A stretch of DNA of 46,453 nucleotides from a virus, in UHGV virus genome UHGV-1365003. The stretch is one strand, 5' to 3'. Positions within the stretch are counted from its first letter, which is position 1. The number at the start of each line of letters is the position of its first letter. The translations under genes were made by a program, and so were the position numbers. Below are positions 4,646 through 46,440 of the stretch, piece by piece. The notes beneath the pieces are model-generated. The model was not told the origin of the DNA. It saw nothing but the letters and a program-made list of their open reading frames with translations, and searched no databases.

Positions 4646-4674
4646 TTGACGTAGAATAACAACTGATGTAGATT
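4646..4674 (+). promoter_or_regulatory. sigma70-type promoter TTGACG-N17-TAGATT (conserved GTTGACGTAGA element) for the plus-strand early genes
   Basis: gtGTTGACGTAGAATaacaactgatgTAGATTgg. The -35 and -10 hexamers are 17 bp apart. Same element recurs at 7 other sites. Confidence 0.55.
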
Positions 4675-4947
4675 GGATTCATCGAAACAAACGAGGGTTA
4701 AGAAATGAAAATCAAAGACCGTGAAGAATTTTAGGATGCGCAGGCTATGGCACGTATCGCAGTTGAGCGCACAAACAACAGCATTCCTGCAGAATCATTC
4801 TGGAACGCAGCAATGCAGGCTTTAATCTCAGCGTATGGGTTAAGCAAATGACAGGCGCAACATTCGAACTTATCGCCAGTCTGGTTATCGTGTCGTTCAT
4901 CATTATCGCAGTGGCAGTTTCAAAATCAGGGTATAAGGAGTAACAAA

Positions 4948-5106
4948 ATGAGCAACAAACCAATCCAGCCAACAGAAGAGATGATTGAAGCAGGCATCCG
5001 TGAACTTATGGAAAACATTGATGTTGAGTCAATGACAAATGATGAGATGAGTGACGCCGTTGTATTCATCTGGCAGGCAATGTATCAGGCGCACGTGGGG
5101 AAATAA
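4948..5106 (+). CDS. hypothetical small acidic protein (52 aa)
   Basis: AAGGAG RBS 7 nt upstream of ATG (MSNKPIQPTEEMIEAG). Not in the ORF track because it is under 60 aa. Confidence 0.5.
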   Translation: MSNKPIQPTEEMIEAGIRELMENIDVESMTNDEMSDAVVFIWQAMYQAHVGK

Positions 5107-5109
5107 CAA

Positions 5110-5292
5110 ATGGCAAAAACTATCTATCGTCGCGAGAAACTGGAACAGGAACTCGGTCACGTTGGCGCGCAAAACTTTATGAGCAAGCAGGCACGCAATG
5201 CAATTGAATCTATCCGCGTGAATCGCGTTGTGCGCGTGTTTAATGGTGAAGGTAAGCGCAGAGTAATGGATGAGCTGATTATCGTGTTTTGA
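5110..5292 (+). CDS. hypothetical protein (60 aa)
   Basis: ORF in the early-gene run. Weak RBS. Confidence 0.4.
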   Translation: MAKTIYRREKLEQELGHVGAQNFMSKQARNAIESIRVNRVVRVFNGEGKRRVMDELIIVF

Positions 5293-5328
5293 CCTCGATT
5301 CAGTGCCCTTATTTTTAATGGTGATGAT

Positions 5329-5562
5329 ATGGTAAAAGTGAAAACATACGAGTTCTGGTTTGCTCAGAACAAGATGTATGCGAGCAAGACAATCAAGCGA
5401 GTGCGCTGGTGGAATAAGTGGTTAATCATTTCCGGCTGCATCGTTCTGGCAAGGTGCAAATTCAAAGCGGTTGACATCACAGATGATGATGCGCTCAAAA
5501 TCGCAAAGATTGAGTTTGAAGAAGATGGTTATTACGAAGAAATTATGGGAGTTAGGGTATGA
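5329..5562 (+). CDS. hypothetical protein (77 aa)
   Basis: ORF in the early-gene run. Stop overlaps the next small ORF's ATG. Confidence 0.45.
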   Translation: MVKVKTYEFWFAQNKMYASKTIKRVRWWNKWLIISGCIVLARCKFKAVDITDDDALKIAKIEFEEDGYYEEIMGVRV

Positions 5563-5666
5563 GTGAACAATCACGCGGAACAGTAAAAGCAAAAACATAC
5601 TCGGTCCTGAGAAGCGCAATTCCGCATCCTCCTGATGGTGATGGATATTACGTGACTGTTGTTTAA
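5559..5666 (+). CDS. hypothetical micro-protein (35 aa)
   Basis: ATGA overlap with the upstream stop. Sequence MSEQSRGTVKAKTYSVLRSAIPHPPDGDGYYVTVV. Confidence 0.3.
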   Translation: MSEQSRGTVKAKTYSVLRSAIPHPPDGDGYYVTVV

Positions 5667-5678
5667 CTTGCTGACTAC

Positions 5679-5837
5679 ATGTCCTGCCTAAACAGAATCA
5701 CAGAAATGAGCGTTGAGAACTATCACATGAAGAATCGCATTGCAGAACTGGAGTCTGCATTGAATCGCCATTATGAGATACCTGACGTTTATGATATGGC
5801 AATAAAGCAATTCGAAAGCCTGGCTAAAAGTGAATAG
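5679..5837 (+). CDS. hypothetical protein (52 aa, coiled-coil-like)
   Basis: ORF MSCLNRITEMSVENYHMKNRIAELESALNRHYEIPDVYDMAIKQFESLAKSE. Confidence 0.35.
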   Translation: MSCLNRITEMSVENYHMKNRIAELESALNRHYEIPDVYDMAIKQFESLAKSE

Positions 5838-5900
5838 CTACCAGTCCATATTAATTACCAGTGCGCTCTATGTGGCGCACGCTTTAGTGGAGATTTACGA

Positions 5901-7420: not shown

Positions 7421-7429
7421 TGTTACAAT
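7421..7429 (+). promoter_or_regulatory. extended -10 promoter element TGTTACAAT upstream of the terminase small subunit gene
   Basis: TGnTACAAT about 45 bp upstream of the ATG at 7473. Member of a recurring extended -10 class. Confidence 0.35.
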
Positions 7430-7472: not shown

Positions 7473-7889
7473 ATGGCTAAAAAGTTATTCAGTAAAGAAA
7501 ATCAACCACAAAATAAACGCGGAAAAGACAAGCGAAAGCTGCTCGTTGAGGCTCTTGAGAGAAAGGGGTTTAGTGAGGAAAAACTCTATGACACCATCGT
7601 TGAGATGGCGATGATTGAACGTGACACGGCAATGATGAAGGAGCTTATCGTTCGATTCAGCCCGTTACCTAAGCCTGTCGCCCCTGTTTTTGAAGTTGAT
7701 TTCCCTGATGACGGAACTCCTGTTCAGAAGATTGACGCCGTTATTCGTGGCATAGCTGCTGGTGTTATACCTGTGGATATTGGCAAGACATTTGCTGAAG
7801 TTATCAGGACAGGACTGGATATTGCCGAAGTTACCGAACTCGCCGCGCGACTTGAGCGACTGGAGAAATTACTGGAGCAGCAACAGTAA
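7473..7889 (+). CDS. terminase small subunit (putative)
   Basis: 138-aa basic N-terminus (KRGKDKRK) followed by a coiled-coil C-terminus. Lies immediately upstream of HNH + terminase large subunit. Confidence 0.55.
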   Translation: MAKKLFSKENQPQNKRGKDKRKLLVEALERKGFSEEKLYDTIVEMAMIERDTAMMKELIVRFSPLPKPVAPVFEVDFPDDGTPVQKIDAVIRGIAAGVIPVDIGKTFAEVIRTGLDIAEVTELAARLERLEKLLEQQQ

Positions 7890-7988: not shown

Positions 7989-8504
7989 ATGCTTACGCAA
8001 GCAGAATTAAAACACATCCTTGATTACAATCCTGACACCGGAATTTTTACATGGAAAAACCCACACAAGCAGGGAAGGGCCAAACCCGGGAAGCCAGCAG
8101 GAACAATAAAATTATGCGGCCCCGTTGGTAGCAAACGACTGTATCACTATATTCATTTTGGAAGAAAGTGGTATAGATCGCACGGACTGGCTTGGCTTTA
8201 CATGACTGGTAGTTGGCCTGAAAAAGAAATAGACCACATAAACAACAATACGCTTGATAATCGTTTTGTTAATCTGCGAGAGGCTGACCATCAGCAAAAT
8301 GGTTACAACAAAAAACTACAGGCAAACAACACATCAGGGGTTAAGGGTGTGTATTGGGATAAATCAAGATGCAAGTGGATGGCAAGATTAAATATAAATG
8401 GCAGGATGGTTAACCTTGGCAGGTTCGCCAACATTGAAGATGCAGTCAAAAAGATAATGGAAGAAAGAGAGAAAAATCACGGGGAGTTTTGTAATCATGG
8501 CTAG
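7989..8504 (+). CDS. HNH homing endonuclease with AP2 domain (paralog 2), between terS and terL
   Basis: AGGAA RBS. HNH motif region IDHINNNTLDNRFVNL. AP2-like segment GVKGVYWDKSRCKWMARLNINGRMVNLGRFANIEDA. Confidence 0.85.
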   Translation: MLTQAELKHILDYNPDTGIFTWKNPHKQGRAKPGKPAGTIKLCGPVGSKRLYHYIHFGRKWYRSHGLAWLYMTGSWPEKEIDHINNNTLDNRFVNLREADHQQNGYNKKLQANNTSGVKGVYWDKSRCKWMARLNINGRMVNLGRFANIEDAVKKIMEEREKNHGEFCNHG

Positions 8505-9921
8505 AAAAAGACTCTCAAGTGTGGCAATCGAAAAACTTGAACAGGTAGTTGGCAACTCAACTGCAAAGCCTGAATCAGCAGTTTTTGGGCTTGTAGATAA
8601 GTTACTTCAGGATGGTTCTCCCAATGTCGTAAAGCGACTTAAGATGACAGCCACTGGGGTATCTGAAACTGATGAAGAGCCAACAATATTAATTCCTGAG
8701 CGGATGGAGCTTATCCTTTACCCACGGCGCTTTAAGGTGTTTTATGGTGGTAGGGGCAGTTCCAAGAGCCGAACGTGTATATCCTACCTTATCGAAAAGG
8801 CAAGGTTCCGCAACAGTCGCGTTGGTTGTTTTCGTGAGATACAGAACTCAATCAAAGAATCAAGCTATGCCGAACTGGTTGATGAGATAAACAGAAAAGG
8901 CCACGCTCAGGAATATCGTTGCGTTGATGGTGAGATAACCCACCACACAACGAAATCAAAGTTTGTTTTCCGTGGTCTGTGGAGAAATATAACCGCCATC
9001 AAGGGTATGGCTGGACTTACAGATGTGTTCTGTGAAGAATCTGAAAATATCAGCCAGATTTCATGGGATACGTTAATCCCAACGGTGCGAGCCTCTGGTT
9101 CTGAAATTATTATTGTTTTTAACCCAAATAAAGAGACTGACCCGACGTGGACTAACTTTGTTGAGCCTTACATCTGCAAGATGGTTGACGGCATATATCA
9201 GGATGATGACATCGTTGTTGTTAATGTTAACTACGTCCACAACCCGTGGTTCACGGAAGAACTTAAGCAGCACATGAACCAGATGAAAGCTGTGGATTAT
9301 GATCGCTATCTGTGGGTGTATGAAGGGTTATTCAACAAGCGTTCCGAAGAGGCCGTGCTTGGCGGAAAATGGCAAACGCTGGACTTCGAGCCATCTCCAG
9401 AATGGGGAGGCCCATATTATGGCATTGACTTTGGTTTTTCTCAGGATGCAACCGCAGCAACAGAATCATATGTAGAAGATTTGGGAGATGGGCGCAGAAA
9501 TCTATATATCTATCGTGACTTTGCAAAGGTTGGGCTTGAGATAACTGACACGCCGGAAGCGATGCGCTCAGCATTCCCAAATTCAGAGAAGTACAGATGG
9601 TATGGGGATTGCGCAAGGCCTGAAACAATAAGCCATATACGCCGATCTGGATTCGATATTCATCCGTGCGCAAAATGGCCGGGTAGCATTGAGGACGGGA
9701 TTACGTGGCTGCGTGGGTGTGACAGAATTTACGTACACTCAAGATGCAAGCACGTCATTGAAGAGATGACAATGTACAGCTACAAGGTGGATAAATTAAC
9801 AGGGAACATACTCCCCGACATAGTTGATAAATACAATCACGCGATTGACAGTTTGCGCTATGGACTTGGTGACCACATAGTCCAGCGAGGTAGCGGGATG
9901 CTAATCCGGCGCAGGCGTTAA
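8497..9921 (+). CDS. terminase large subunit
   Basis: 474 aa. Walker A-like FYGGRGSSKS. Size and position upstream of portal support the call. A nuclease-like C-terminal half is expected by family (not directly checked). Confidence 0.85.
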   Translation: MARKRLSSVAIEKLEQVVGNSTAKPESAVFGLVDKLLQDGSPNVVKRLKMTATGVSETDEEPTILIPERMELILYPRRFKVFYGGRGSSKSRTCISYLIEKARFRNSRVGCFREIQNSIKESSYAELVDEINRKGHAQEYRCVDGEITHHTTKSKFVFRGLWRNITAIKGMAGLTDVFCEESENISQISWDTLIPTVRASGSEIIIVFNPNKETDPTWTNFVEPYICKMVDGIYQDDDIVVVNVNYVHNPWFTEELKQHMNQMKAVDYDRYLWVYEGLFNKRSEEAVLGGKWQTLDFEPSPEWGGPYYGIDFGFSQDATAATESYVEDLGDGRRNLYIYRDFAKVGLEITDTPEAMRSAFPNSEKYRWYGDCARPETISHIRRSGFDIHPCAKWPGSIEDGITWLRGCDRIYVHSRCKHVIEEMTMYSYKVDKLTGNILPDIVDKYNHAIDSLRYGLGDHIVQRGSGMLIRRRR

Positions 9922-10142: not shown

Positions 10143-10146
10143 GTAA

Positions 10147-10336: not shown

Positions 10337-10365
10337 ATTCTACGTCACCAACATATCTACGTCAA
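10337..10365 (-). promoter_or_regulatory. sigma70-type promoter TTGACG-N17-TAGAAT (GTTGACGTAGAT element) driving the two small minus-strand genes
   Basis: Minus strand reads aTGTTGACGTAGATatgttggtgacgTAGAATcat. A second degenerate copy (GTGACGTAGAAT) is in the spacer. Confidence 0.5.
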
Positions 10366-10403
10366 CATTTATTATTGTTGTTGATAAATCTGCATCACCA
10401 CAC

Positions 10404-10435
10404 TTTACAAATCTACACCGAGCGCATAGTATAAT
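10404..10435 (+). promoter_or_regulatory. promoter TTTACA-N17-TAGTATAATC for the plus-strand small genes and portal operon
   Basis: cacTTTACAaatctacaccgagcgcaTAGTATAATCtacatc. Confidence 0.45.
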
Positions 10436-10463
10436 CTACATCAGGTTTATCGGAGACATCATT

Positions 10464-10920: not shown

Positions 10921-13267
<2,347 letters not shown>

Positions 13268-14768: not shown

Positions 14769-14796
14769 CTTTTATTCCTCACCGTTTGATTGATGT

Positions 14797-14829
14797 AGAT
14801 ACTATGCACCACCGCTCAATCTACGTCAA
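14797..14829 (-). promoter_or_regulatory. promoter with GTTGACGTAGATTGAG element (-10 CATAGT/TAGTAT) for minus-strand island A
   Basis: Minus strand reads gtGTTGACGTAGATTGAGcggtggtgCATAGTATCTACATC. The 16-mer is identical to the one at ~26830. Confidence 0.45.
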
Positions 14830-17179: not shown

Positions 17180-17668
17180 TTACTTTAATGCTCCGTGATT
17201 TTTATGGAAACAATATTTTTCCTCAGCTGCTTTTCTGCATTCTGCAGCCATTGACAAGTTTGAGAATCTGCCAAGCGCAATCTGCTTTCCGTTCACGGCA
17301 ATCTTTGCATACCATTTCTTACCCTTGTTATCCCAACTAACTCCGACAACATTACTCGTGTTATCAGATCGCATAGAAAGATTCTTAGCGTTCTGCTTTC
17401 TGCTTACCAATCTGAGATTCTCAATCCTATTATCATCACGAATGTGGTTTATATGATCAATCTCCATCCCCTCTGGTATCTCACCATTGTGCATTCCCCA
17501 AATTATTCTATGCATCAGTCGCACTTTTCCAAAGCAATGAACCTGCATGTACCCATTACCTGCCATGCTTCCTGCCAGCCTCCCTATTTTCATGTTTCTG
17601 TTTGTTTTTATCTTCCAATATAGCAACCCATCACGGTATTCGAACACATCATTCCAATCCATCATCAC
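17180..17668 (-). CDS. HNH homing endonuclease with AP2 domain (paralog 3)
   Basis: MMMDWNDVFEYRDGLLYWKIK parallels the 6723 paralog. HNH motif region IDHINHIRDDNRIENLRLV. AP2-like segment GVSWDNKGKKWYAKIAVNGKQIALGRFSNLSMAA. Confidence 0.85.
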   Translation of the reverse strand: MMMDWNDVFEYRDGLLYWKIKTNRNMKIGRLAGSMAGNGYMQVHCFGKVRLMHRIIWGMHNGEIPEGMEIDHINHIRDDNRIENLRLVSRKQNAKNLSMRSDNTSNVVGVSWDNKGKKWYAKIAVNGKQIALGRFSNLSMAAECRKAAEEKYCFHKNHGALK

Positions 17669-17864
17669 TCTCCTTTATTGTGACTTTGTTATTCTCGTCA
17701 ACACTGAAGTTGGCGCGAATTAAATCATACATGTCATTTTTAGACATATCAGCCAGCGCCACATAGCAACGGGCAAAGTAGCGAACATCACGGAGTGTCA
17801 GCGGCTGCCGCTTCTCCACAATGCTGGTGATAATGTCCATCGGCTCGCGTCGTGGTCTTGGCAT
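17649..17864 (-). CDS. hypothetical protein (71 aa)
   Basis: Strong AAGGAG RBS. First gene of island B. Confidence 0.5.
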   Translation of the reverse strand: MPRPRREPMDIITSIVEKRQPLTLRDVRYFARCYVALADMSKNDMYDLIRANFSVDENNKVTIKESDDGLE

Positions 17865-17879: not shown

Positions 17880-17935
17880 TCGAAAAACATCTTGACGTTT
17901 CTACATCACTTAGTCAATACTTATTGACGTAGATT
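17880..17935. promoter_or_regulatory. divergent promoter region containing TTGACGTAGATTG (+) and TTGACT (-) elements
   Basis: cTTGACGtttctacatcacttagtcaatacttaTTGACGTAGATTGtacc. Hexamer assignment for -10 is ambiguous. Confidence 0.35.
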
Positions 17936-17963
17936 GTACCACAACGGAAAAGGTGATGTGGAA

Positions 17964-18634: not shown

Positions 18635-18879
18635 GCGCACCACATATGCCGATGATGAATTATGAGGGATTGCTGGATTGCCCATTCTGCGGGAGCGGCG
18701 AGACGACAATGGATAGAGAGGATGGGTTATCGCAAGTTGTTTGCTTGGGGTGCGGCATTGCAACTGATTTATATCAACAGAAATCAATCATAATTAAAAA
18801 ATGGAATACCAGAAACGGACACCTCTACACCGCAGACGACTTCAATCAGGCAGCAGAGGAGCGCGATCATGGACTATAA
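18631..18879 (+). CDS. lar: Lar-family restriction alleviation protein (zinc ribbon)
   Basis: CPFCGSGETTMDREDGLSQVVCLGCGIATDLY...KWNTR matches the Lar family pattern CPFCG...C..CG...AW/KWN. Confidence 0.6.
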   Translation: MSAPHMPMMNYEGLLDCPFCGSGETTMDREDGLSQVVCLGCGIATDLYQQKSIIIKKWNTRNGHLYTADDFNQAAEERDHGL

Positions 18880-19357
18880 ATCACAAATCATGCGCGTGAT
18901 TATCAATCATCCAGGCGCAACGCGTGCATATATTGAAAAGCATTGCGGAGGAAAGCATTCAAGCACCACAACGCATCGTTTGCATGAGATGCTCGCACTT
19001 GGCTTTATTAGCCGCGAGAAGTCAGTTATTCGTGGTGGTAAGTGGCAGTATAAATATTTCATCTCTGATGATGCGGCTGGCATTGATGATGCGATTAAGT
19101 GCCATTTGCTTGATAACACTGGCGCAGAGGTGAAAGAAATCAGCGCAGCCACTGGCATTGATTACCGGATCGTAAAAAGCCGCATCCGCATTATGTTTCA
19201 TAACGGTGATGTGACGCGAAGCTATGACCACCACAAGAAGCTGTGGCGTTATTCATGGAAGGAGAAGGAAGTCAATGTAAGCAATCTATTTAATTCACTT
19301 CTTCGCAACGCAAGGGGGCGTCATGGGGAAAGCCAAACGCAAGAAGCAGGAGTATGA
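18869..19357 (+). CDS. putative winged-helix DNA-binding protein (two wHTH-like segments)
   Basis: 162 aa. Two wHTH-like segments: HPGATRAYIEKHCG...LHEMLALGFISREK and AEVKEISAATGIDYRIVKSRIRIMFHNGDVTR. Confidence 0.4.
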   Translation: MDYKSQIMRVIINHPGATRAYIEKHCGGKHSSTTTHRLHEMLALGFISREKSVIRGGKWQYKYFISDDAAGIDDAIKCHLLDNTGAEVKEISAATGIDYRIVKSRIRIMFHNGDVTRSYDHHKKLWRYSWKEKEVNVSNLFNSLLRNARGRHGESQTQEAGV

Positions 19358-25616: not shown

Positions 25617-26426
25617 TCACATCTTCTCCAGAATTGCCATAACCTCGTGAATATCAGCAACAGGAATCTGGATAAATTCCTCGTCCTCAGCCACAACATG
25701 ACCAGCAGGTAGAATCACATGGTCTGCTGGTTTCAATAACTCGATCATGCGGTCTACTGGCTTAATCTTTTTCGACTTCAGCACCTTTGCCGTGACCTTA
25801 TCCTTACCTTGCGCTTTGGCCTCTTCGACTGCCTCGTCGATAACTTTAACCGCATCATCGCCATGCTCACGCGTTACTGCTACGGCATTTGCATAGCTGA
25901 TTTGCCCTGCACTGATGCGCGCTTTTACTTCCGCTGGCACATCACCAAGCGACAGGTGCATTTGCACGTCAGATACTGAGCGACCGACCTTTTTGGCGAT
26001 TTCTTCATTCGTCCAGCCAAAGCCTTTCAGTCGCGTGTAAGCCTTTGCGCGCTCAAACGGGTCGAGCTGCTTGCCCTGACTGGATGACACCATGAAGGCA
26101 ATTTTATCCGCCTCATCGCCAGCGAAATCCTTACACTCAATGCGAACGATTGGCGCGCCACGCTCAATGGCACGCAATGCGCCGAGATAGCGATGCTGAC
26201 CATCAAGAATGCGGATTCCCTTCTCGTCAGGAATAACTGTTAATGCTGGCAGTGGCTGACCTGATTCCCAGCACTGCGCGAAATATTCCACATGCTGCTC
26301 ATCTGCTTCGCGGATGTTATATCCCGGCTCCAGATAGATTTGCTCCACTGGTACGAGATAGGTTTTGTTTACAGCGATGCCGTTCCGCGTTTCTTTGTCT
26401 GAATAGATTTTACTGAGCGTTTTCAT
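25617..26426 (-). CDS. ParB-like nuclease-domain (ParB/Srx fold) protein with HTH
   Basis: ParB N-terminal motifs IRILDGQHRYLGA. HTH segment GWTNEEIAKKVGRSVSDVQMHLSLG. Confidence 0.65.
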   Translation of the reverse strand: MKTLSKIYSDKETRNGIAVNKTYLVPVEQIYLEPGYNIREADEQHVEYFAQCWESGQPLPALTVIPDEKGIRILDGQHRYLGALRAIERGAPIVRIECKDFAGDEADKIAFMVSSSQGKQLDPFERAKAYTRLKGFGWTNEEIAKKVGRSVSDVQMHLSLGDVPAEVKARISAGQISYANAVAVTREHGDDAVKVIDEAVEEAKAQGKDKVTAKVLKSKKIKPVDRMIELLKPADHVILPAGHVVAEDEEFIQIPVADIHEVMAILEKM

Positions 26427-26776
26427 TGTTTCTTTCCTAATGCTTTCTTGATAGATTCTTCAGCTAACAGCAATTCTTCTGGGTATTGCTCATTCCAGTT
26501 TTGTTTGTATGCCTTGCTAAGCATTTTTTGCAGAGCTTCAAGCAACTCAGGTGCTGCTGCCATTAAATTAAAGTCATGTTCAACAGATGAATCAATTTCC
26601 CATCGCATTCCATTAAATTTGGCCCCCTTATTTGAATAAGCAATATTGCGAGAATCATCCCTGTGACATCCTGGAGTGTCATCGATGCAACTGGCTGGGT
26701 AAATTGCTGCGCAACCTCCACGGATGTCTGCAACCCAAGGCCATTTCGTACCTTTAAATTCATTTTCCATCTTCAT
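26423..26776 (-). CDS. hypothetical protein (117 aa)
   Basis: AGAGGTG RBS. Start MKMENEF. First gene of island C. Confidence 0.5.
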   Translation of the reverse strand: MKMENEFKGTKWPWVADIRGGCAAIYPASCIDDTPGCHRDDSRNIAYSNKGAKFNGMRWEIDSSVEHDFNLMAAAPELLEALQKMLSKAYKQNWNEQYPEELLLAEESIKKALGKKQ

Positions 26777-26810
26777 CACCTCTAACATTTATTGTTGTTT
26801 CTACGTAATT

Positions 26811-26839
26811 ACTATAAACACCCTCTCAATCTACGTCAA
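26811..26839 (-). promoter_or_regulatory. sigma70 promoter TTGACG-N17-TATAGT (GTTGACGTAGATTGAG element) for island C
   Basis: Minus strand reads ctGTTGACGTAGATTGAGagggtgttTATAGTaattacgtagaa. Confidence 0.55.
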
Positions 26840-29357: not shown

Positions 29358-29894
29358 GGTTTAAGCATTGCCAGCGTGCTTTCTTAACACCCAGCCCCGT
29401 AACCCATACATACCCCTATATATGATTGCGATAATGCTGAATGTTAAGTGTTGTGGGGCCGGTGCTGATCTCCGACTTGCGGTTATTTCAGACTCTCACG
29501 GGCGTTTAATTGCCCCGCCGAACAGCTCTTTTCCGCAATAGCTGCAATGTCTTTCGCGCATCAGCCTGCGCATTCACCACAACGGAAAGAGCACTCAGTT
29601 GTACATGCCAGTTGTGCCACTAGGAAATGCTTTCGCAGACCGTTAAGCTCTTTGCAAGTTCTTTAATGCTCTTACCTGTTGTGTGCACATTATTAATCAC
29701 ACCGGGCCAGTGCGCCGAATTTGTTTACAAGGAATCGGAAGACCTTGCTGACTTACAGGCTATTACGCCGCCATCAGAACAACATCATCGTTTGTATTTA
29801 TCTTTGTGGTCAGTTTCTAAAAAGTCCGCAAAGTCGCTCACGGAAACTATCTGAAATACAATCTACACCACAAAATAATCACTGTCAATACCTG

Positions 29895-31636: not shown

Positions 31637-31665
31637 AATCTACATCACCACCTCGCAGGTGTCAA
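31637..31665 (-). promoter_or_regulatory. strong sigma70 promoter TTGACA-N17-TAGATT driving the moron operon
   Basis: Minus strand reads gtgTTGACAcctgcgaggtggtgatgTAGATTcaag. Consensus -35 with exact 17-bp spacing. Confidence 0.65.
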
Positions 31666-31676: not shown

Positions 31677-31685
31677 TGATATAAT
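31677..31685 (+). promoter_or_regulatory. extended -10 promoter TGATATAATC upstream of the tail assembly chaperone/tape measure operon
   Basis: gagaTGATATAATCaac ~20 bp before the ATG at 31706. Back-to-back with the moron promoter. Confidence 0.45.
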
Positions 31686-31705
31686 CAACATCAGTCAAAT
31701 TTAGG

Positions 31706-41639: not shown

Positions 41640-41670
41640 AATAACCCCGCTTCGGCGGGGTTATTTTTAT
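41640..41670. terminator. bidirectional hairpin terminator AACCCCGCttcgGCGGGGTT
   Basis: Perfect stem flanked by A- and T-tracts. Ends the minus-strand replication module. Confidence 0.65.
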
Positions 41671-41789
41671 CATCAGAAGGGTATTGAATCATCGAAGTCC
41701 ATCGGAGTCTCATTCCCTCCTTGTTGGCTTTTTTGTTTTGGTGGCTGTTGTTGTCGTTGCGGTTGCTGTCCTGATTGCTGGCGTGGTTG

Positions 41790-42245
41790 CTAAAAACCAT
41801 CAAATATCAATGGCTCTGATGGTTTTTTATAGTTTGGGTAATTTATTGCTCTCCAGTCGTTAAATGCCATCATTGCAGCTTCCCAACCAAGGCATACACA
41901 CGCGAAGGAACCTAATTCTTTTGCCGCCTTTAGGTATGCCATTTGACCGGGCTGCCATTTTGATAAAGTATGATCCATTCTTTTCATCTCCATGACGAAT
42001 GATTGCTTTCCGATGATAATGATGTCTGATGCCCCAAAGTTTAGCGCACCTTTTTTCTTCAGGTTTTCAACTTCATACCCTTTACGCTTTCCTTCATTTG
42101 GTACATGAATCATAACTCTTGCAAAGTCAGGATATAGCTTCCTTATCTGATTAACAAAAGTCTCCAGCTCAGCATCTTCTGACGGGCACTTTTTGTTTCT
42201 GTAATCTAAATTTCCATATACCTTAACGCCTTCTGGAAAAATCAT
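41790..42245 (-). CDS. VRR-NUC domain nuclease (PD-(D/E)xK)
   Basis: GGGGGG RBS. Motif GASDIIIIGKQ...FVMEMKR...LSKWQPGQ..YLKAAKELG fits the VRR-NUC D...E.K core. Confidence 0.6.
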   Translation of the reverse strand: MIFPEGVKVYGNLDYRNKKCPSEDAELETFVNQIRKLYPDFARVMIHVPNEGKRKGYEVENLKKKGALNFGASDIIIIGKQSFVMEMKRMDHTLSKWQPGQMAYLKAAKELGSFACVCLGWEAAMMAFNDWRAINYPNYKKPSEPLIFDGF

Positions 42246-44107
42246 AATACCCCCCAATACATGCCTTTAACGTTGAAATATTTACTACCCTTATCTCTTC
42301 TGAACATAATCACTGATGGCGCGACAGCCTCATCTCTTTTAGATATTGCATCATCAATTGACATGTTATGTTCACCAAAGCACTTCTCACAAAATTCTTC
42401 CCACTCCTTCTTCATCCATTCTTTCTCAGAGTTTGGATTGTAGAACTTGCTAACAAAAAATGGTTTCTGTTCAATAGCAAATTTTACGTGCACCAAATCT
42501 TCACCGCTTGAAACGTAATGCTTCATGATGTTCATCATGGTTACGCTTGATTGCTTTGTTGAATAAGGAGAAGAATCAAGCCTGTCAGCTTCTTCTTTTA
42601 GCTTTTGGTTTGGGTCAATGATTTCAGCACCGCATGATGTGCAGTTTCTTGCCGCTATATCATTTTCAAATCCACAATCAGGACACTCTTTCACCGACCA
42701 CTTATAAGTACACCTGTGCATTTCCCTTAATGGCCCGTGCATAACGTAGTTTTTACACCTCCTCCCAAAATGAGCAGGCATAGGCTTGCTTCCAATTTTT
42801 TCACCTGATTTATCAAAAATATCAATCATCACCCTGTCACTAGCCAAATCAAGCCAGTAACCTTCCTTGTCAACTTCAAGATTTTCAGGATTTGGACGCA
42901 CACCAAATTCATTAATAAAGCCACAAAGAGGGCATTTGACATCCATTGGCACGGATGGTTTTTTCCTTGTTGCTTTTATTTCTGGAGTAAACAAGTCTCC
43001 AGTCTCAGAAAAGTGGCGCTGAATGTTGCCTGCGTAATCGCTGACAAGAAAGTCTTCCTTACCTTCATAAAGACGCGTCCCCCTGCCAATTATTTGCTGG
43101 TAGAGTCTTGGTGATTCTGTGGCTCTCATTACTGCTATGTGATCACAATGAGGAACATCCACCCCTACAGTAAGGATATTCTGGTTAACGATGTATTTAA
43201 CTTTTTGTGCCTTGAAGTCTGATATTGCCTTGTTGCGATCTGCTGTTGGCATATCACCAAAAACATAACTATAAGAACCGGGAGGAAGTGACTCCATTAT
43301 CTCCATAGCGTGTTTCTTGGTGCTGGCAAAAATCATCGTTCCGCGCCGATTAACAGAGCGACGGATAATATCTTCAACAATACGTGATGTTTTTCTTCCT
43401 TTGCCAACCATCGCCTTTTCAACTGAAGATGTTGTATACCTACCAAACTTATCCTTTTCAAGACAAGACGTATCATACTCGTCAAAAACAGGCTCTGTCA
43501 CTGGAGGCGTAAGGTATCCGTTTTCGATGAGAAATTTAGCTTCAAGCTCATAAACGACTTTGTCGTAATATGGGTCTATGGCTGTTTCTTCATCTGTAGG
43601 ACCGTCGAGGTAATGCTCTTTGTAGATGTATCCAGTTCCAAGGCGATAAGGCGTAGCGGTCATTCCAATAACACGCAGTTTTGGATTGCGACGCTTCATC
43701 TCATTAATAATAAATTTAATGGTTGGCGTTATTCCATCACATTCATCAATAATGACAGCGCCATACTTATCACCAAACATCTCTATTGAGTTCTTTATGG
43801 TTACTGGTGAACCAAATACTACAGGATGACGCAGGTTTTTGGGACCAGCTTTTGCACTGAACATGCTGGCTGGTTCTCCTGTAAGGAGATATTTAGCGCG
43901 ATTTTGTGTGACGAGTTCCGCTGTGGGAGCAATGCACAAAACTCGCTTTTTGCTCATACCATAAATACGAGATGCAAGTTCTGCTACAACCATAGATTTT
44001 CCTGCACCTGTCGGGAGGATGATAACGCATGATGAGATGGTGCTGCGAATGTGTGCCATAGCTGAATCCACAGCTTCTTGTTGGTATGGCCTTAGTGTGT
44101 ATTTCAT
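42242..44107 (-). CDS. SF2 (DEAD/DEAH-box type) DNA helicase with C-terminal zinc-ribbon region
   Basis: Motif I ILPTGAGKSMV. Motif II VIIDECD. Motif III MTATP. Motif VI QIIGRGTR. C-terminal CPLCG...CPDCG...CTSCG. Confidence 0.8.
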   Translation of the reverse strand: MKYTLRPYQQEAVDSAMAHIRSTISSCVIILPTGAGKSMVVAELASRIYGMSKKRVLCIAPTAELVTQNRAKYLLTGEPASMFSAKAGPKNLRHPVVFGSPVTIKNSIEMFGDKYGAVIIDECDGITPTIKFIINEMKRRNPKLRVIGMTATPYRLGTGYIYKEHYLDGPTDEETAIDPYYDKVVYELEAKFLIENGYLTPPVTEPVFDEYDTSCLEKDKFGRYTTSSVEKAMVGKGRKTSRIVEDIIRRSVNRRGTMIFASTKKHAMEIMESLPPGSYSYVFGDMPTADRNKAISDFKAQKVKYIVNQNILTVGVDVPHCDHIAVMRATESPRLYQQIIGRGTRLYEGKEDFLVSDYAGNIQRHFSETGDLFTPEIKATRKKPSVPMDVKCPLCGFINEFGVRPNPENLEVDKEGYWLDLASDRVMIDIFDKSGEKIGSKPMPAHFGRRCKNYVMHGPLREMHRCTYKWSVKECPDCGFENDIAARNCTSCGAEIIDPNQKLKEEADRLDSSPYSTKQSSVTMMNIMKHYVSSGEDLVHVKFAIEQKPFFVSKFYNPNSEKEWMKKEWEEFCEKCFGEHNMSIDDAISKRDEAVAPSVIMFRRDKGSKYFNVKGMYWGVL

Positions 44108-44481
44108 AAATCAAATCCCTCACACCATGCAACAACATACTCACACTGCTCAACATTGAACATGCCAATGTGACATTGCTCTTTGTAAATACCCATGCTT
44201 TTAGCCAGTGCTGAATAAGCAGCACCACGCGTCATTTTCCCTGATTTCCATAATGGATCAAAAGCGGAGTGTGCTTTACTTTTTGCCTTCCTTAATTCTT
44301 CGTTAGCCACCCTTCCAAGAGGTCTTTTACCATCACCATTTTTATGGCAACCAACATAAGCACCACAAGAATCACATAGATAAAAATTAAGAGATGAAAG
44401 GTCTGGTCTGTGTGGGTAAATTTCACTCCCTTTAGCTAGTCTTGTCGCAATATTGCAGTAATCACAGATAACTTTGTACAT
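44104..44481 (-). CDS. zinc-finger protein (CxxC...CxxC; DUF3268-like, tentative)
   Basis: GGGGG RBS. Sequence MYKVICDYCNIATRL...YLCDSCGAYVGCH. Confidence 0.45.
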   Translation of the reverse strand: MYKVICDYCNIATRLAKGSEIYPHRPDLSSLNFYLCDSCGAYVGCHKNGDGKRPLGRVANEELRKAKSKAHSAFDPLWKSGKMTRGAAYSALAKSMGIYKEQCHIGMFNVEQCEYVVAWCEGFDL

Positions 44482-44494
44482 ACAACCCCCCAAT

Positions 44495-44522
44495 TAAAAG
44501 CCCCGTTACGGGGCTTTATTTA
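44495..44522. terminator. bidirectional hairpin terminator AAAGCCCCgttacGGGGCTTT
   Basis: Perfect stem between two minus-strand genes. Confidence 0.65.
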
Positions 44523-44538
44523 GATAAACATCAAGTCA

Positions 44539-45060
44539 TTAAAAAGGCACGTCAGAGTCGAAGTCCATCGGAGGCTCGTTAGACGGTGCAGATTGCTTAG
44601 GAGCAGATGCTGCTTTTGTCTGTTGACGACTGAAAACACCAGCCACATAGTTACCAGTTTTTTGCTTATCCTCAGACTCCCAAACGCGAAGAAGAAGAAT
44701 CATTGGGCGATTTGCAAGAGCACTGGCAATAGCAAAATCAGTCGGCTCTTTACCTGATGCCATCAGTTTGCCACCAGCATTTGCGTCAATTGCTGCAAGC
44801 ATAGTGATAGCATTGTCACGCTGCTTCTCTTTTGAGCTAAATACTTTCAGTTTCTGGAAGATGATGCGATTTTTATAATCACCCTCAAGGATTCGCCACT
44901 TAAGATTGAAGAATCGCTCACCTTCCCACTGATCGTCTTTACACTCTTCAACGGCAGCAAGAACACGGCTACCATCGGGAATTACCTCGAAACCACCACC
45001 CAACTCAAATTCAGATTTAGATTCAACAGCTTTACCGTCAGAAAGATTCCAGAAACCCAT
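44539..45060 (-). CDS. putative ssDNA-binding protein with SSB-like acidic C-terminal tail (…PPMDFDSDVPF)
   Basis: GAGAGGA RBS. C-terminal DFDSDVPF resembles the SSB-Ct (DDDIPF). Adjacent to Sak4/Gp157. N-terminal fold not recognised from sequence. Confidence 0.45.
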   Translation of the reverse strand: MGFWNLSDGKAVESKSEFELGGGFEVIPDGSRVLAAVEECKDDQWEGERFFNLKWRILEGDYKNRIIFQKLKVFSSKEKQRDNAITMLAAIDANAGGKLMASGKEPTDFAIASALANRPMILLLRVWESEDKQKTGNYVAGVFSRQQTKAASAPKQSAPSNEPPMDFDSDVPF

Positions 45061-45077
45061 TTTTGTGTCCTCTCGAT

Positions 45078-45557
45078 TTATTTGATGATCAGTTTTGGTT
45101 TGCCGTCGGTGATGGCACAACCCTTAATTTCAATCCCGGCTTTTATCGCATTTTTAATTGCTGCATTATCTGCCGACACTTTCACAACTCGGTACTGCTC
45201 AGGAAGCTGTTCAGCAGGAACAAACACATCAAGAACTGGTGACGGCTTGCCAAGAGTGATACTGAACAACTTACCTTTGATATTTGTCTTTCCTGACGCC
45301 ATCATGTTTTGACGAAGATAATCTTTAAGGTTATCAATCTTCGCAACTAAAACACGCTTACGTTCAGAAAGACGGTCAATCTCGGATTTAAGTCCAGCTT
45401 CATCAGCTTCAAGCTCACGAATGTAAGCAGCAACCATTTCAGCCTTTCCTTCAAACTCCTCTTCAATAAGATTGATGGTATCTTCAATCTGCTCCCGTGG
45501 AATATCCTCCATCGCCAGCAGTTCATTAAGCTGTTTGGTTATCTCGTATAGATGCAT
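45078..45557 (-). CDS. Siphovirus Gp157-family protein
   Basis: MHLYEITKQLNELLAM...IEEEFEGKAEMVAAYIRELEADEAGLKSEIDRLSERKRVLVAKIDNLKDYL matches the Gp157 family architecture. Paired with Sak4. Confidence 0.65.
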   Translation of the reverse strand: MHLYEITKQLNELLAMEDIPREQIEDTINLIEEEFEGKAEMVAAYIRELEADEAGLKSEIDRLSERKRVLVAKIDNLKDYLRQNMMASGKTNIKGKLFSITLGKPSPVLDVFVPAEQLPEQYRVVKVSADNAAIKNAIKAGIEIKGCAITDGKPKLIIK

Positions 45558-46368
45558 AATATTTAATCTCACTCAAAAGTGGGTTCTCACCTTTTTCAAA
45601 AGGAATTTCAGGTTCAAGGTTGTATCTGTTTTTTGCATTAACATACCCAACCCGACCGTCACCAGAGGTGATAAGAACTCGCTGACCAGTCTGAACAACC
45701 TTTCCAAACTTAGTGACTTGCCCTTTCTTATCAGTCTCAGTCCCTTTCACAAACTCTTCATTCCGGATATAAATAACAGCATCACTAAGATTCACATAAC
45801 CAGAAACAGAAGCATCATGCATGTCAAGTGTGTAAACAGTGTATTCATCAGCATCAGGGCGATTCTTCATCTTTTTAACACCTGCGTGTGCAAGATAAAT
45901 AATGCTCATCCCTTTTTCTTTGCGAAGATACTTACATGCATTTATTATTTCAGCGTGCATTTCAGAAACAACAATATATCCTTTGTTGTAACCACCAGCC
46001 GCAGAACCTACGTTGTCAACACCGTAATTTTCACAAACCTCATGCTCAAACATTGAATGCAGGCTTGTGATTGAGTCAATTACAAGCGTTTTGTAATTAT
46101 GTTCCTCAGTAATTAATGCGCGTAGCTGTGACAGCAAATCATCCTTTGTGCTTGTTTTGCGTTTAGCGTCAGCGCGCTTCAGAACAGGAAATGAATCAGG
46201 TTTCTTTTCATCATCCCAGTCATCAAAAACACCAGTGATCTCTTCAGCCTGAATAAACACTGGGTTTGGGAATAGCGCCGCAAGAGTTGTCTTGCCTACA
46301 CCTGGAGTACCAACCAATGTTATGATTGGCGCTGCTGGTTTTGGTTTTTGAATCATTGATAAGCTCAT
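45526..46368 (-). CDS. Sak4-like RecA-core ATPase (AAA_24 family single-strand annealing/recombination protein)
   Basis: Walker A GTPGVGKTT. Walker B VIDSIT. Synteny with Gp157 and an SSB-like gene. Confidence 0.7.
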   Translation of the reverse strand: MSLSMIQKPKPAAPIITLVGTPGVGKTTLAALFPNPVFIQAEEITGVFDDWDDEKKPDSFPVLKRADAKRKTSTKDDLLSQLRALITEEHNYKTLVIDSITSLHSMFEHEVCENYGVDNVGSAAGGYNKGYIVVSEMHAEIINACKYLRKEKGMSIIYLAHAGVKKMKNRPDADEYTVYTLDMHDASVSGYVNLSDAVIYIRNEEFVKGTETDKKGQVTKFGKVVQTGQRVLITSGDGRVGYVNAKNRYNLEPEIPFEKGENPLLSEIKYYASIRDNQTA

Positions 46369-46394
46369 AGTGTCCTCTCGATTTAACTCAGCAT

Positions 46395-46440
46395 ATCGCT
46401 GGTGTGACTTAAAGATACGTCAACGTGATGGTAAACGCAA
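46395..46440 (-). promoter_or_regulatory. probable promoter with GTTGACGTATC element for the Sak4 operon
   Basis: Minus strand reads cacGTTGACGTATCtttaagtcacaccagcgatatg. -10 assignment is weak. Confidence 0.3.

Follow-up and report, generated by a model that had tools for sequence, protein, structure and literature searches.

Organization of the repeated element

The window analysed here is the whole 46,453-nucleotide stretch of virus genome UHGV-1365003. Its repeat unit is an asymmetric 10-mer, TGAYGTAGAW, with the invariant core GTAGAT, and its copies and relatives in this 46-kb Skatevirus-like phage are distributed as follows.

4647..4656, plus strand: site TGACGTAGAA, covering the -35 of PA (TTGACG 4646-4651), the rightward early promoter
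4664..4673, plus strand: site TGATGTAGAT, supplying the PA -10 (TAGATT 4669-4674)
10338..10347, minus strand: site TGACGTAGAA, supplying the PB -10 (TAGAAT 10342..10337)
10355..10364, minus strand: site TGACGTAGAT, over the PB -35 (10365..10360)
10388..10397, minus strand: one-mismatch site TGATGCAGAT, upstream of PB
10434..10443, minus strand: site TGATGTAGAT, reversed, abutting the -10 (TATAAT 10430-10435) of the plus-strand promoter of gene 10464-10670
14791..14800, plus strand: inverted site TGATGTAGAT, at about -6..+4 of PC (-10 CATAGT 14806..14801)
14819..14828, minus strand: site TGACGTAGAT, over the PC -35 (14829..14824); PC leads into island 13351-14768
17899..17908, minus strand: site TGATGTAGAA, reversed, in the spacer of a rightward promoter (TTGACG 17892-17897 / AATACT 17916-17921)
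17925..17934, plus strand: site TGACGTAGAT, in the start region of the same rightward promoter
17954..17963, plus strand: one-mismatch site TGATGTGGAA, where gene 17964-18161 has its ribosome-binding region
26769..26778, minus strand: one-mismatch site TGATGAAGAT, in the ribosome-binding/start region of gene 26423-26770, 30 bp beyond the 26799 site
26799..26808, minus strand: one-mismatch site TTACGTAGAA, over the PE start region, 30 bp from the -35 site
26829..26838, minus strand: site TGACGTAGAT, over the PE -35 (26839..26834; PE -10 TATAGT 26816..26811)
29861..29870, minus strand: one-mismatch site TGGTGTAGAT, supplying the -10 (TAGATT 29865..29860) of a promoter with TTGACA at 29888..29883
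31638..31647, minus strand: site TGATGTAGAT, supplying the PF -10 (TAGATT 31642..31637; PF -35 TTGACA 31665..31660)
31684..31693, minus strand: one-mismatch site TGATGTTGAT, reversed, abutting the tail operon's extended -10 promoter (TGATATAAT, 31677-31685)
46413..46424, minus strand: weak relative GTTGACGTATCT, with 2 mismatches, at the -35 of the Sak4/helicase operon

PB is the predicted promoter of a small minus-strand unit (9945-10302), PE that of the ParB-like/RusA operon, and PF that of the superinfection-immunity/NinX island. The two PA sites are direct repeats 17 bp apart, and TCATCGAAA begins 4 nt past the -10 in PA and in PF. Two sites also fall within a second predicted promoter: that at 14819..14828 occupies positions -34..-25 of the divergent extended -10 promoter of the lysis operon (TGATAGAAT, 14838-14846), and that at 26829..26838 the same positions of a divergent extended -10 promoter at 26848-26856 (TGCTAAAAT). 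Likewise, the site at 17925..17934 abuts the TG-extended -10 (TACAAT 17938..17933) of the leftward promoter for wH71, a small predicted winged-helix protein, and its operon. Transcription from the promoter with TTGACA at 29888..29883 would enter a non-coding stretch of ~500 nt and tRNA-Met (29272-29348). Phage C1, Klebsiella phage 6991 and seszw have an exact TGACGTAGAA as the counterpart of the 26799 site. No canonical -10 lies 16-18 bp from GTTGACGTATCT, and no site accompanies TTGACG-N17-CATTAT, the divergent Cro-like promoter.

Enrichment and placement on predicted promoter elements

The window holds 11 exact copies of TGAYGTAGAW against 0.42 +/- 0.64 expected from shuffles, none of which reached 11, and the 12-mer GTTGACGTAGAT, at two or fewer mismatches, has 14 matches against 2.98 +/- 1.84, a count reached by 0 of 100 dinucleotide shuffles. 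Comparison with shuffled sequence was a check that the initial annotation had itself named, and with both patterns enriched the recurring element it described is real. Every exact copy is intergenic (11/11), though intergenic DNA makes up ~9% of the genome, and every one (11/11) falls within -36..+10 of a predicted sigma-70 promoter, the promoters being consensus matches that overall are not enriched (45 vs 37.9 in shuffles). At least six one-mismatch copies lie beside exact sites (10388, 26769, 26799, 29861 and 31684 on the minus strand, 17954 on the plus strand). The 10-mer supplies the 10-12-mers that recur most often in the genome and is its sole dispersed specific repeat, once AATAATAAAT-type words, which are of low complexity and mostly within coding sequence, are set aside; a search of the genome for repeated palindromes found none. 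A search of the literature found no description of the motif.

The unit had been taken for a 12-16-mer anchored on the -35, which does not hold, as the 10-mer can equally make up the -10 region and is found inverted too. It stands in three registers, over the -35 (TTGACGTAGAT), as the -10 (TGAYG+TAGAWT), and reversed, abutting an opposite-strand -10, with copies in both orientations and spacings of 17, 26-30 or 46 bp. TAGAT comes after the -35 at four promoters, TGAYG before the -10 at four, and the non-consensus -10 TAGAWT is used repeatedly. Among the occurrences proposed initially, those at 4645-4656(+), 10355-10366(-), 14819-14830(-), 17923-17934(+) and 26829-26840(-) are exact or near-exact, the fourth having been placed 7 bp off, at ~17916. 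The degenerate copies at 10338(-), 26799(-) and 17892-17908 and the TTGACA variant at 31665..31660(-) were recovered, as was the site near 46425, at 46413-46424(-) with 2 mismatches; the 16-mer GTTGACGTAGATTGAG is identical at 14819 and 26829. A -10 at 17 bp accompanies the elements at 4646 (TAGATT), 10365 (TAGAAT), 14829 (CATAGT), 26839 (TATAGT) and 31665 (TAGATT), and is missing at 17924 and 46423. The proposed promoter class, with a TTGACR -35, a 17-bp spacer and a TAGAWT or TATAGT -10, is indeed predicted for minus-strand islands and the rightward early operon, and a pattern scan agrees that plus-strand operons use extended -10 elements (TGnTAnAAT at 14838, 26848, 29895, 31677, 20693, 7421 and 24554). 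That the element precedes every opposite-strand island is true of nearly all; the HNH-like gene 23699-24505(-) is without a copy, the Sak4 operon has a 2-mismatch copy only, and none was seen upstream of the primase operon.

Whether such a pattern calls for a dedicated factor must be asked, given that a single strong sigma-70 promoter cassette might have spread through the genome by copying and persisted through descent and selection on promoter strength alone. Within the motif, TTGAC is close to a consensus -35 and TAGAWT can serve as a -10, the 16-mer at 14819 equals that at 26829, and promoters A, B and F are alike beyond the -10; because TCATCGAAA is common to PA, PB and PF downstream of the -10, part of the promoter similarity could be common descent of a cassette. 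However, the position of the 10-mer against the hexamers varies among three registers, both orientations occur, and TAGAWT is a weaker -10 than the TATAAT of other promoters in the same genome. We consider the copied cassette unlikely, and comparison among relatives weighs further against it.

Conservation and lineage variation

Sites lie at identical positions in every relative examined, from Skatevirus, Cedarrivervirus and Deseoctovirus to the Klebsiella clade and metagenomic clades. Positions match in 30/30 core-family loci and likewise in the ParB-centred loci L075-L118 (mostly Klebsiella clade), are also kept in phages Sf11, C1, 6991 and seszw and in the differently organised genomes of the L119 clade, although much of this orthologous conservation comes from genomes ~90% identical and the informative comparisons are a handful of diverged lineages. 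E. coli phage C1 carries 14 exact sites and a viable 36.5-kb seszw mutant 11. Cross-clade identity is 104/130 (~0.8) at site positions, or 113/130 (~0.87) once one 18-bp spacer is corrected, 57/67 at hexamer-only positions, and 228/562 (0.41) at other positions. Spacers and flanks diverge between relatives while sites stay, and at locus C the promoter block is retained although the downstream gene varies between phages. The initial annotation had read conservation past the hexamers as a sign of a dedicated DNA-binding factor, and the comparison does suggest one: non-hexamer site positions are as conserved across clades as the hexamers while spacers diverge, which argues against a copied cassette.

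Lineages also possess their own versions of the site, TGACGCAGAT and GCGGTAGAT among them. L161 has TGACGCAGATA at -35 positions and retains GTAGAT where the site doubles as a -10, L162 has GCGGTAGAT ahead of TAGATT -10s, and genomes of the L164 type combine TGACGTAGAT with TTGGTAGAT. The 5' half varies by lineage (TGAYG, GCGG, TTGG) and the -10 is constant, shifts that sigma-70 contacts do not explain and that indicate, instead of sigma-70, a DNA-binding protein co-evolving with the site. Such a protein might in principle be an enterobacterial transcription factor exploited by the phages, as the motif is common to phages of Salmonella, Escherichia, Shigella and Klebsiella. We know of no E. 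coli regulator whose consensus matches it, and lineage variants of the 5' half in related phages are better fitted by a phage-borne, co-evolving factor; a host regulator is highly improbable.

Candidate regulators

17649..17864, minus strand: wH71, of 71 aa, a predicted winged-helix protein carrying a basic N-terminal arm, candidate site binder
25617..26426, minus strand: ParB/KorB-like HTH protein, second gene of the PE operon, candidate binder or partner
50..292, plus strand: Cro/YdaS-like HTH protein, rejected as common binder
18869..19357, plus strand: MarR-like wHTH protein, rejected as common binder

The gene for wH71 is the first downstream of the site-bearing region D and occurs in every motif-bearing lineage; it was not found in the 14-21-kb pieces representing the motif-less L163 and L124-128 loci. 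The best fold matches of its model (pLDDT 85) are all winged-helix domains, matched weakly (Foldseek E 0.4-1), with forkhead, ROQ and MarR-type domains at the top. Where sites read G-GTAGAT, Tyr45 of helix 3 is replaced by His, and the L164 type has both wH71 paralogs and both site types, although helix 3 differs considerably between the window and Klebsiella phage 6991 despite the same motif in both. The ParB-like protein is a true ParB/Spo0J homologue (PDB 8qa8 and 1r71 were matched weakly) with a recognition helix identical among clades with an identical motif; in L255 the helix is changed and the motif is not. ParB-family proteins usually bind palindromes. Both genes are retained in the 36.5-kb minimal seszw genome, and in L162 and the L164 type they are divergent neighbours flanking the site-rich region. 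The leading candidate is wH71, at somewhat less than an even chance, and the ParB/KorB-like protein a possible, if doubtful, binder; the two may act together. Another phage protein is rather unlikely, and the remainder falls to there being no dedicated phage factor.

Neither of the two regulators put forward initially qualifies as the common one. The Cro/YdaS-like gene is absent from the motif-bearing E. coli phage C1 and from seszw. The MarR-like (tandem-wHTH) protein has 35-38% identity to its Klebsiella clade counterpart, where the motif is identical, is not at the syntenic place in L161, and is deleted in the viable seszw mutant that keeps its sites.

The presence of a universally kept ParB/Spo0J homologue raises a further question, namely whether the copies are parS-type loading sites for condensation, partition or spreading-based silencing rather than for promoter-specific control. 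Apart from AATAATAAAT-type words, no other specific repeat is dispersed in the genome, no repeated palindrome occurs, and in phage N15 scattered SopB sites influence expression. Yet the site is asymmetric and merely 10 bp, a centromere would not be expected to align exactly with -35 and -10 hexamers, and the arginine patch of the protein is degenerate (GQHRYLGA vs GERRxRA). A ParA partner is not among the annotations of Sf11, C1 and phage 6991, and ParB-bearing relatives without wH71 are also without the motif, having TGCGCA-type palindromes instead. Loading sites of this type are very unlikely.

A proposed operator regulon

Present on the predicted promoters of almost all accessory or early units in this phage and its many relatives, TGAYGTAGAW is most likely the operator of a phage regulator predicted to switch these units off jointly. 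The best explanation, and one we hold to be probable, is an asymmetric operator embedded in sigma-70 promoter cores and bound by a phage-encoded protein that would repress them, so that the whole would work like a dispersed asymmetric operator regulon. Host RNA polymerase (sigma-70) promoters would drive the accessory, early and opposite-strand units, the operator being built into their core elements, and a sequence-specific phage protein would bind each 10-mer, probably as one subunit per site, which would allow copies to function whichever way they point and whether they are 17, 26-30 or 46 bp apart. As the regulator accumulated, sites would be occupied, RNA polymerase excluded and the units shut down together; exclusion is to be expected because no copy lies outside a -35, a -10 or a start region. 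Since both best candidates appear to be transcribed from site-bearing promoters, shutdown would include autoregulation. A literature search found no transcription start, binding or expression data for these phages. Overall, the interpretation in the initial annotation is partly supported.

At 14819 and 26829 a dual effect is possible because the sites form -34..-25 of divergent extended -10 promoters without a -35: a single protein bound there could shut off the island promoter and release or assist that of the structural genes. The same geometry could instead be primary, the site being an activator box at which a protein at ~-30 turns on these divergent promoters in the style of the T4 MotA box, its overlap with island promoters being secondary. 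Both sites lie 12 nt from the -10 of TGnTAnAAT promoters, and a 12-13-nt geometry is met again in Klebsiella phage 6991, L161, L233 and L237. However, 5 further extended -10 promoters of the window lack a site at -30, and most sites lie over a -10 or start region, unsuited to an activator. MotA/AsiA homologues were not detected, and the similarity that Foldseek gave between wH71 and the N-terminal domain of MotA is not significant (E 0.52). Activation as the main role is quite unlikely.

Comparison with known systems

The proposed operator regulon has parallels in several well-studied systems. The T4 MotA box, a phage-specific element centred near -30, precedes a sigma-70 -10 by 12 +/- 1 bp and marks promoters that lack a -35. 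Two divergent promoters here have that arrangement, but most sites fall on a consensus -35 or on the -10 itself, and other extended -10 promoters are boxless. P2 Cox, 186 Apl and lambda Xis, of ~70-90 aa, repress promoters from asymmetric 9-13-bp boxes, often in arrays of one subunit per box. The predicted winged-helix wH71 is of similar size, although this phage has no recombination module and wH71 gave no sequence match and no significant fold match to Cox or Xis. In plasmid RK2, the ParB-family HTH protein KorB and the small DNA-binding protein KorA act at many operator copies at promoters, and their sites are palindromes. A ParB-family HTH protein and a small predicted DNA-binding protein are likewise encoded together here, with many promoter-located copies, but both are candidate binders, the 10-mer is not palindromic, the CTP-binding arginine patch is degenerate, and the phage is lytic.

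The operators of phage P1 C1 are asymmetric, dispersed and promoter-overlapping, single or paired in either orientation; they are 17 bp long and bound by the 283-aa repressor of a temperate plasmid-prophage. The sites described here share the asymmetry, dispersal and promoter overlap, but the P1 sequence is unrelated and no homologue of its repressor was detected in this phage. Mycobacteriophage L5 has gp71 operators or 'stoperators', a short asymmetric site at many intergenic places in one genome, one class of which includes an early promoter's -35 hexamer. The D29 context for these elements is given in PMC12266134. The present sites differ in sequence, lie on promoter elements rather than within operons as elongation blocks, and belong to a phage group regarded as virulent and without a gp71-type immunity repressor or integrase, but they resemble the L5 sites in being scattered, asymmetric and intergenic, in having one class over an early -35, and in the expectation that a single phage protein acts over many units.

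A Recurring Asymmetric Element in Intergenic DNA

The initial annotation described a recurring element of 12 to 16 bp of the −35 type, and the recurrence is real: with up to two mismatches allowed, GTTGACGTAGAT occurs 14 times against 2.98 ± 1.84 in shuffled sequence, so that the enrichment over shuffled sequence that had been named as a check is borne out. The positions listed for the element were accurate to within a few bases, the degenerate copies also exist, and the 16-mer reported as identical at two sites is indeed so, at 14819 and 26829. The broad proposal, promoters of one class that carry an operator, was likewise sound, but its anatomy and the regulators assigned to it needed correction. 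The unit is a 10-mer, TGAYGTAGAW, which was recognized from the flanks, the same sequence recurring at what had been taken as plain −10 hexamers.

This 10-mer has no dyad symmetry. Exact copies number 11 in the window against 0.42 ± 0.64 expected, and 11 of 11 are intergenic although intergenic DNA makes up ~9% of the genome, for a random-placement chance of ~0.09^11. At least six further copies carry one mismatch and either adjoin exact copies or lie at a further promoter. Together, exact and one-mismatch copies fall in seven control regions of the window, all intergenic, and every exact copy lies within −36 to +10 of a predicted sigma-70 promoter, in one of the following placements.

Placement of sites relative to predicted promoters
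4647, 10355, 14819, 26829: register 1, site over the −35 as TTGACGTAGAT
4664, 10338, 31638, and 29861 with one mismatch: register 2, site forward over the −10 (TGAYG then TAGAWT)
10434, 17925, 14791, and 31684 with one mismatch: register 3, site in reverse orientation, next to the −10 or across the start region (TAnAAT-CTACRTCA)
17899: site reversed, inside a promoter spacer

Regions A and B each hold two direct repeats 17 bp apart, region E holds three copies 30 bp apart, and the arrangement in regions C and D (the latter with the sites at 17899 and 17925) is inverted.

In genome-wide k-mer counts the motif is among the most repeated 10- to 12-mers of the window, and the only words that outrank it at 10–11 bases are AATAATAAAT and its extensions. 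AATAATAAAT was rejected as a motif, its copies being mostly coding, mutually unrelated, and without a coherent element. Similarly, TCATCGAAA is not enriched as a genome-wide motif (23 versus 16.6), and CTGGCGCA, with 13 copies versus 2.1 expected, was set aside as a signal since nearly all copies lie in plus-strand coding sequence. Its 13 places (for example 32647, 32806, 32869, and 33265) include 11 plus-strand copies inside structural genes, and the excess is probably a codon-usage effect (Leu-Ala-Gln).

Predicted Promoters and Their Sites

A −35 of TTGACG or TTGACA (5–6 of 6 matches to TTGACA) lies at 4646 (promoter PA), 10365 (PB), 14829 (PC), 17892, 26839 (PE), 29888, and 31665 (PF), and seven promoters have a −10 (A2 and T6) reading TAGATT, TAGAAT, CATAGT, TATAGT, or AATACT 17–18 bp downstream. 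A −10 exactly 17 bp downstream, as first proposed, is plausible at five of the seven elements originally listed and not at the other two; no −10 hexamer was found 16–18 bp downstream of 46423. The register 2 sites at 31638 and 29861 pair with a perfect TTGACA 17 bp upstream.

The element appears to be more than promoter consensus because TAGAT after the −35 and TGAYG before the −10 occupy positions for which, to our knowledge, no specific sigma-70 contacts are described, because the motif promoters keep a sub-optimal TAGAWT −10 while plus-strand promoters of the same genome use TATAAT, and because the sites are conserved while spacers drift. Further, the TG of TGAYG is displaced by one base from the position that an extended −10 would need.

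A second class of promoter, the extended −10 (TGnTAnAAT) with no recognizable −35, is predicted as follows.

Extended −10 promoters
14838-14846, plus strand
26848-26856, plus strand
29895-29903, plus strand
31677-31685, plus strand
20693-20701, plus strand
7421-7429, plus strand
24554-24562, plus strand
17941..17933, minus strand

Extended −10 promoters precede the plus-strand lysis, head-completion, tail, and head operons, and several stand back-to-back with the promoters of islands (short minus-strand transcription units), a "TTTTATCATAA" arrangement that is kept in other lineages. At PC and PE the site occupies −34 to −25 of the back-to-back extended −10 promoter, which has no −35, and the 12–13-nt distance from site to −10 at back-to-back promoters is conserved in four other lineages. 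The geometry of a T4 MotA-box middle promoter, a box centered near −30, 12 ± 1 bp from the −10, and without a −35, is found at 2 of the ~8 extended −10 promoters (14838 and 26848) and is absent at the others.

Two further observations concern the transcribed side of these promoters. At three motif promoters, a spacing of exactly 4 nt separates the −10 from a downstream TCATCGAAA:
4679-4687, plus strand
10324-10332, minus strand, in the form TTATCGAAA
31624-31632, minus strand
The sequence recurs in the L119 clade at the ortholog of the early promoter (L119 about 19255; L-numbers denote loci of related phages), and probably includes the start site and the first transcribed bases. Separately, a promoter of consensus form, TTGACA-N17-TAGATT, is directed into ~500 nt of sequence that contains no sizeable ORF (29349-29888, minus strand); a tRNA-Met (29272-29348) and then a terminator follow this stretch, where Sf11 has tRNA-Ser and tRNA-Arg.

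The Phage Group and Conservation of the Element

The window is a complete, circularly permuted siphophage genome of 46,453 bp, both ends of which meet within a single intergenic region. Identity of ~90% over 50–60% of its length relates it to Shigella phage Sf11 (Cedarrivervirus), to Salmonella phages VSt472, KFS-SE2, and Vi II-E1, and to E. coli phages C1 (Deseoctovirus), swi2, and Bas77-81, which the second BASEL paper groups as "Skatevirus and relatives" (PMC11990801). The Skatevirus-type group takes in Vi II-E1, Sf11, C1, seszw, BASEL Bas77-81, and many Salmonella, E. coli, and Klebsiella biocontrol isolates, and hundreds have been sequenced. The annotations of Sf11, C1, phage 6991, and seszw include neither an immunity repressor nor an integrase. 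The literature searched by sequence, phage names, and genera yielded no description of the motif sequence, promoters, or regulators of this group, and no transcript data for it were found in the literature searched.

The plus strand of the window carries packaging, lysis, head, and tail genes together with a block of small early genes, and the minus strand carries replication genes and a series of islands between the structural operons. The replication module (41573-46368 and 1-4052) is a mosaic cassette of Cro-like, Sak4-like, Gam-like, SSB, helicase, and primase-polymerase genes found in only some family members; C1 and seszw have in its place a DnaB/primase/DEAD-helicase/ExoVIII/Erf module with its own TGAYGTAGAW sites. 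Between the primase operon and the early operon is an AT-rich intergenic stretch of ~690 bp (4053-4746), at the equivalent of which the Sf11 record begins and ends and for which the L119 equivalent has C-rich and AT-rich repeats; this stretch may be an origin or packaging region. An Rfam int-alpA RNA motif (RF02996; 7906-7969, plus strand; 42.6 bits versus a gathering score of 35.8) sits within the gap between the gene at 7473-7889 and an HNH endonuclease gene at 7989-8504, just upstream of the terminase. Finally, the interval from the capsid gene to the gene at 24593-24790 holds, in opposite orientation, a lysine-rich 268-aa ORF with an HNH-like "WHIDHI" motif (23699-24505, minus strand). This ORF replaces the gp37-like gene of Sf11 and C1, is 96% identical in DNA to VSt472 loci (L026 and L058), and has neither a Pfam match nor a TGAYGTAGAW promoter.

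Orthologous promoters were compared among the window, Klebsiella phage 6991, the L119/L120 clade, and L161; drift is seen in their spacers and flanks but not in the sites. Ungapped comparisons across clades give 104/130 identical site positions, a figure that rises to 113/130 when one promoter is aligned with its 18-bp spacer; hexamer-only positions score 57/67 and all remaining positions 228/562. At locus C the downstream gene varies between phages, and a promoter block of ~45 bp forms the constant boundary. Sites stand at the same map positions in 30 of 30 core-family IMG/VR loci, in the ParB-centered loci L075-L118 (mostly the Klebsiella clade), and in complete genomes, where exact copies number 12 in Sf11, 14 in C1, 9 in phage 6991, and 11 in a seszw mutant; they are also kept in a clade with a different gene order (L119/L120, L246-L252).

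The form of the site varies among lineages. L161 has TGACGCAGATA wherever the site overlaps the −35 and keeps TGAYGTAGAT where the site doubles as the −10, the L162/L242 promoters read TTGACN-N17-TAGATT with GCGG replacing TGAYG before the −10, and the L164/L233/L237/L244 type has TGACGTAGAT alongside TTGGTAGAT and GGGTAGAT. GTAGAT is the constant core and the 5′ half varies by lineage, which is the behavior expected of an operator co-evolving with its protein. As judged by these sequence comparisons, the motif is real and strongly conserved, and it is probably a regulatory element.

Other relatives carry different repeats. The ParB-bearing relative L163 has no GTAGAT motif and has repeated TTGCGCAA-like palindromes in its control regions (1-205, 9363-10001, and 11680-11932). 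Serratia-prophage-like loci L124-128, also ParB-bearing, have a hairpin-like TATGCGC...GCGCATA just upstream of ParB; beyond it no dispersed motif was found there that might co-vary.

Candidate Binding Proteins

Proteins considered as binders
17649-17864, minus strand: wH71, a 71-aa predicted winged-helix protein
25617-26426, minus strand: ParB/KorB-like protein
50-292: Cro/YdaS-like protein
18869-19357: MarR-like wHTH protein
25358-25531: 57-aa gene after ParB
5110-5292: DUF7540

Neither of the regulators originally put forward qualifies as the common binder. The Cro/YdaS-like protein (Pfam YdaS/P22_Cro) is part of the exchangeable replication module, its gene is found in only 6 of ~45 family contigs, and it is absent from C1 and seszw, which keep all sites. 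A lambdoid Cro/CI operator was rejected on related grounds, as the site is asymmetric, the promoter region of the Cro-like gene has no exact site, and the motif persists without the gene. The MarR-like wHTH protein is 35–38% identical in the Klebsiella clade despite an identical motif, was not found at the syntenic position in L161, and has been lost from MZ375351, a viable 36.5-kb mutant of seszw that was obtained in the CiPGr genome-reduction study (PMC9825161). The 57-aa gene and DUF7540 were also set aside; their loss from this minimal mutant shows dispensability, not lack of binding. Pfam and PHROG scans gave no DNA-binding annotation for the small conserved proteins.

No family annotation was found for wH71. 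It is the first gene after control region D, and in the L162 and L164 type it diverges from the neighboring ParB-like gene across a site-rich spacer. All motif-bearing lineages examined have it, and the fetched parts of motif-less lineages (for L163, one piece) did not yield it. Its AlphaFold model, a confident winged-helix-like prediction (pLDDT 85, pTM 0.69), has an H-S-H-H-H-wing topology, and its best PDB matches in Foldseek are all winged-helix nucleic-acid-binding domains, but weak (E 0.4–1, TM 0.5–0.66). Small box-binding regulators of the Cox/Apl/Xis kind are winged-helix proteins of ~70–90 aa, and none of the matches is Cox or Xis. The basic N-terminal arm (RxRKEP) is conserved. His takes the place of helix-3 Tyr45 in the two lineages whose sites have G, not C/T, immediately before GTAGAT, and the L164 type has one paralog of each kind together with both kinds of site.

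Proposed pairings of protein and site form
L161 proteins: TGACGCAGAT
L162-type wH71 (His45): GCGGTAGAT
Window protein (Tyr45): TGAYGTAGAT

Further, an asymmetric 10-bp box used in either orientation fits a winged helix acting as one subunit per site better than a ParB dimer. Against wH71, the window and phage 6991 have the motif in common, yet their helix-3 sequences diverge at many positions. On balance wH71 is a credible candidate for the site binder, its chances falling a little short of even.

The ParB/KorB-like protein matches PF17762 at 2.5e-11 and PF08535 at 1.4e-5, residues 39-201 match Spo0J 1vz0 at 3e-12, and these matches identify it as a true homologue of ParB/Spo0J over both its N-terminal and its HTH domain. 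Its gene stands behind the most site-rich promoter and is kept in minimal mutant MZ375351. A search with the gene returned 166 matching records, 164 of which cover at least 80% of it; 70 have no stated host, the same number as in the capsid search, and these are probably mostly seszw mutants. Protein identity is 99% in Sf11 and C1, 80% in phage 6991, and 72% in L119, and wherever clades have an identical motif the recognition helix keeps the sequence RSVSDVQMHLSL; L161 (IHT) and L162 (KRS...VQQ) have altered versions. Against this protein as the binder, L255 combines the standard motif with an altered helix (VQTHLAF), and L163 and L124-128 bear ParB without the motif and have TGCGCA-type palindromes instead. 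ParB sites are normally palindromes. Neither a palindromic ParB-type site of 13–16 bp nor a separate parS-type repeated palindrome was found in the window, the 10-mer being asymmetric and the only repeated palindromes being terminators. The segment aligned to the CTP-binding GERRxRA arginine patch reads GQHRYLGA and is degenerate, and no ParA/IncC partner ATPase is annotated in three related complete genomes (Sf11, C1, and phage 6991). The ParB-like protein, possibly acting together with wH71, is a less likely candidate than wH71. That another phage protein binds the site is improbable, and the absence of any dedicated phage factor takes up whatever likelihood these three leave.

Proposed Regulation and Known Systems

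Repression by occlusion is the simplest reading of sites that overlie a −35, a −10, or a start region. Occlusion would act in parallel on the early operon (PA), the small unit 9945-10302 (PB), the island 13351-14768 (PC), both region D promoters, the ParB/RusA operon (PE), the tRNA unit, and the superinfection-immunity/NinX island (PF). At PC and PE, where the site lies at −34 to −25 of an extended −10 promoter at a conserved distance, the same occupancy could favor the structural-gene promoter, a secondary possibility because other extended −10 promoters have no site there. The most elaborate proposal, and an unlikely one taken whole, is a two-protein switch in a large group of virulent siphophages: wH71 would read the GTAGAT box with one subunit per site, and the ParB/KorB-like protein would partner it as KorB does KorA, silencing all island and early promoters. 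Back-to-back pairs would be handed over to the extended −10 structural-gene promoters, and specificity would be re-tuned by lineage through single substitutions, for example Tyr45 to His (Y-GTAGAT becoming G-GTAGAT).

The motif marks control regions and likely co-regulated units, among them anti-restriction, superinfection immunity, ParB/RusA, tRNA, and early genes, and so provides a map of regulation, together with two candidate regulators, for a phage group in wide use. Natural operator variants paired with natural protein variants represent a ready-made experiment on specificity change. Likewise, for a genome-reduced chassis such as seszw, knowledge of the controlling 10-mers and of two small genes would be directly useful.

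More broadly, the motif may be likened to the dispersed asymmetric operators of mycobacteriophage L5 gp71, whose sites include a −35, and of phage P1 C1. Common to these is a short, non-palindromic intergenic site in many copies that overlaps predicted promoter core elements; this phage group differs in lacking both a temperate module and a homologue of gp71 or C1. The pairing of a ParB-family protein with a small candidate DNA-binding partner similarly recalls the RK2 KorA/KorB regulon, whereas the present case departs from KorB/ParB systems in its non-palindromic site, its degenerate CTP-binding box, and the lack of an annotated ParA in the three relatives. The element thus resembles L5 gp71, P1 C1, and RK2 KorA/KorB in different respects and belongs to none of these systems.
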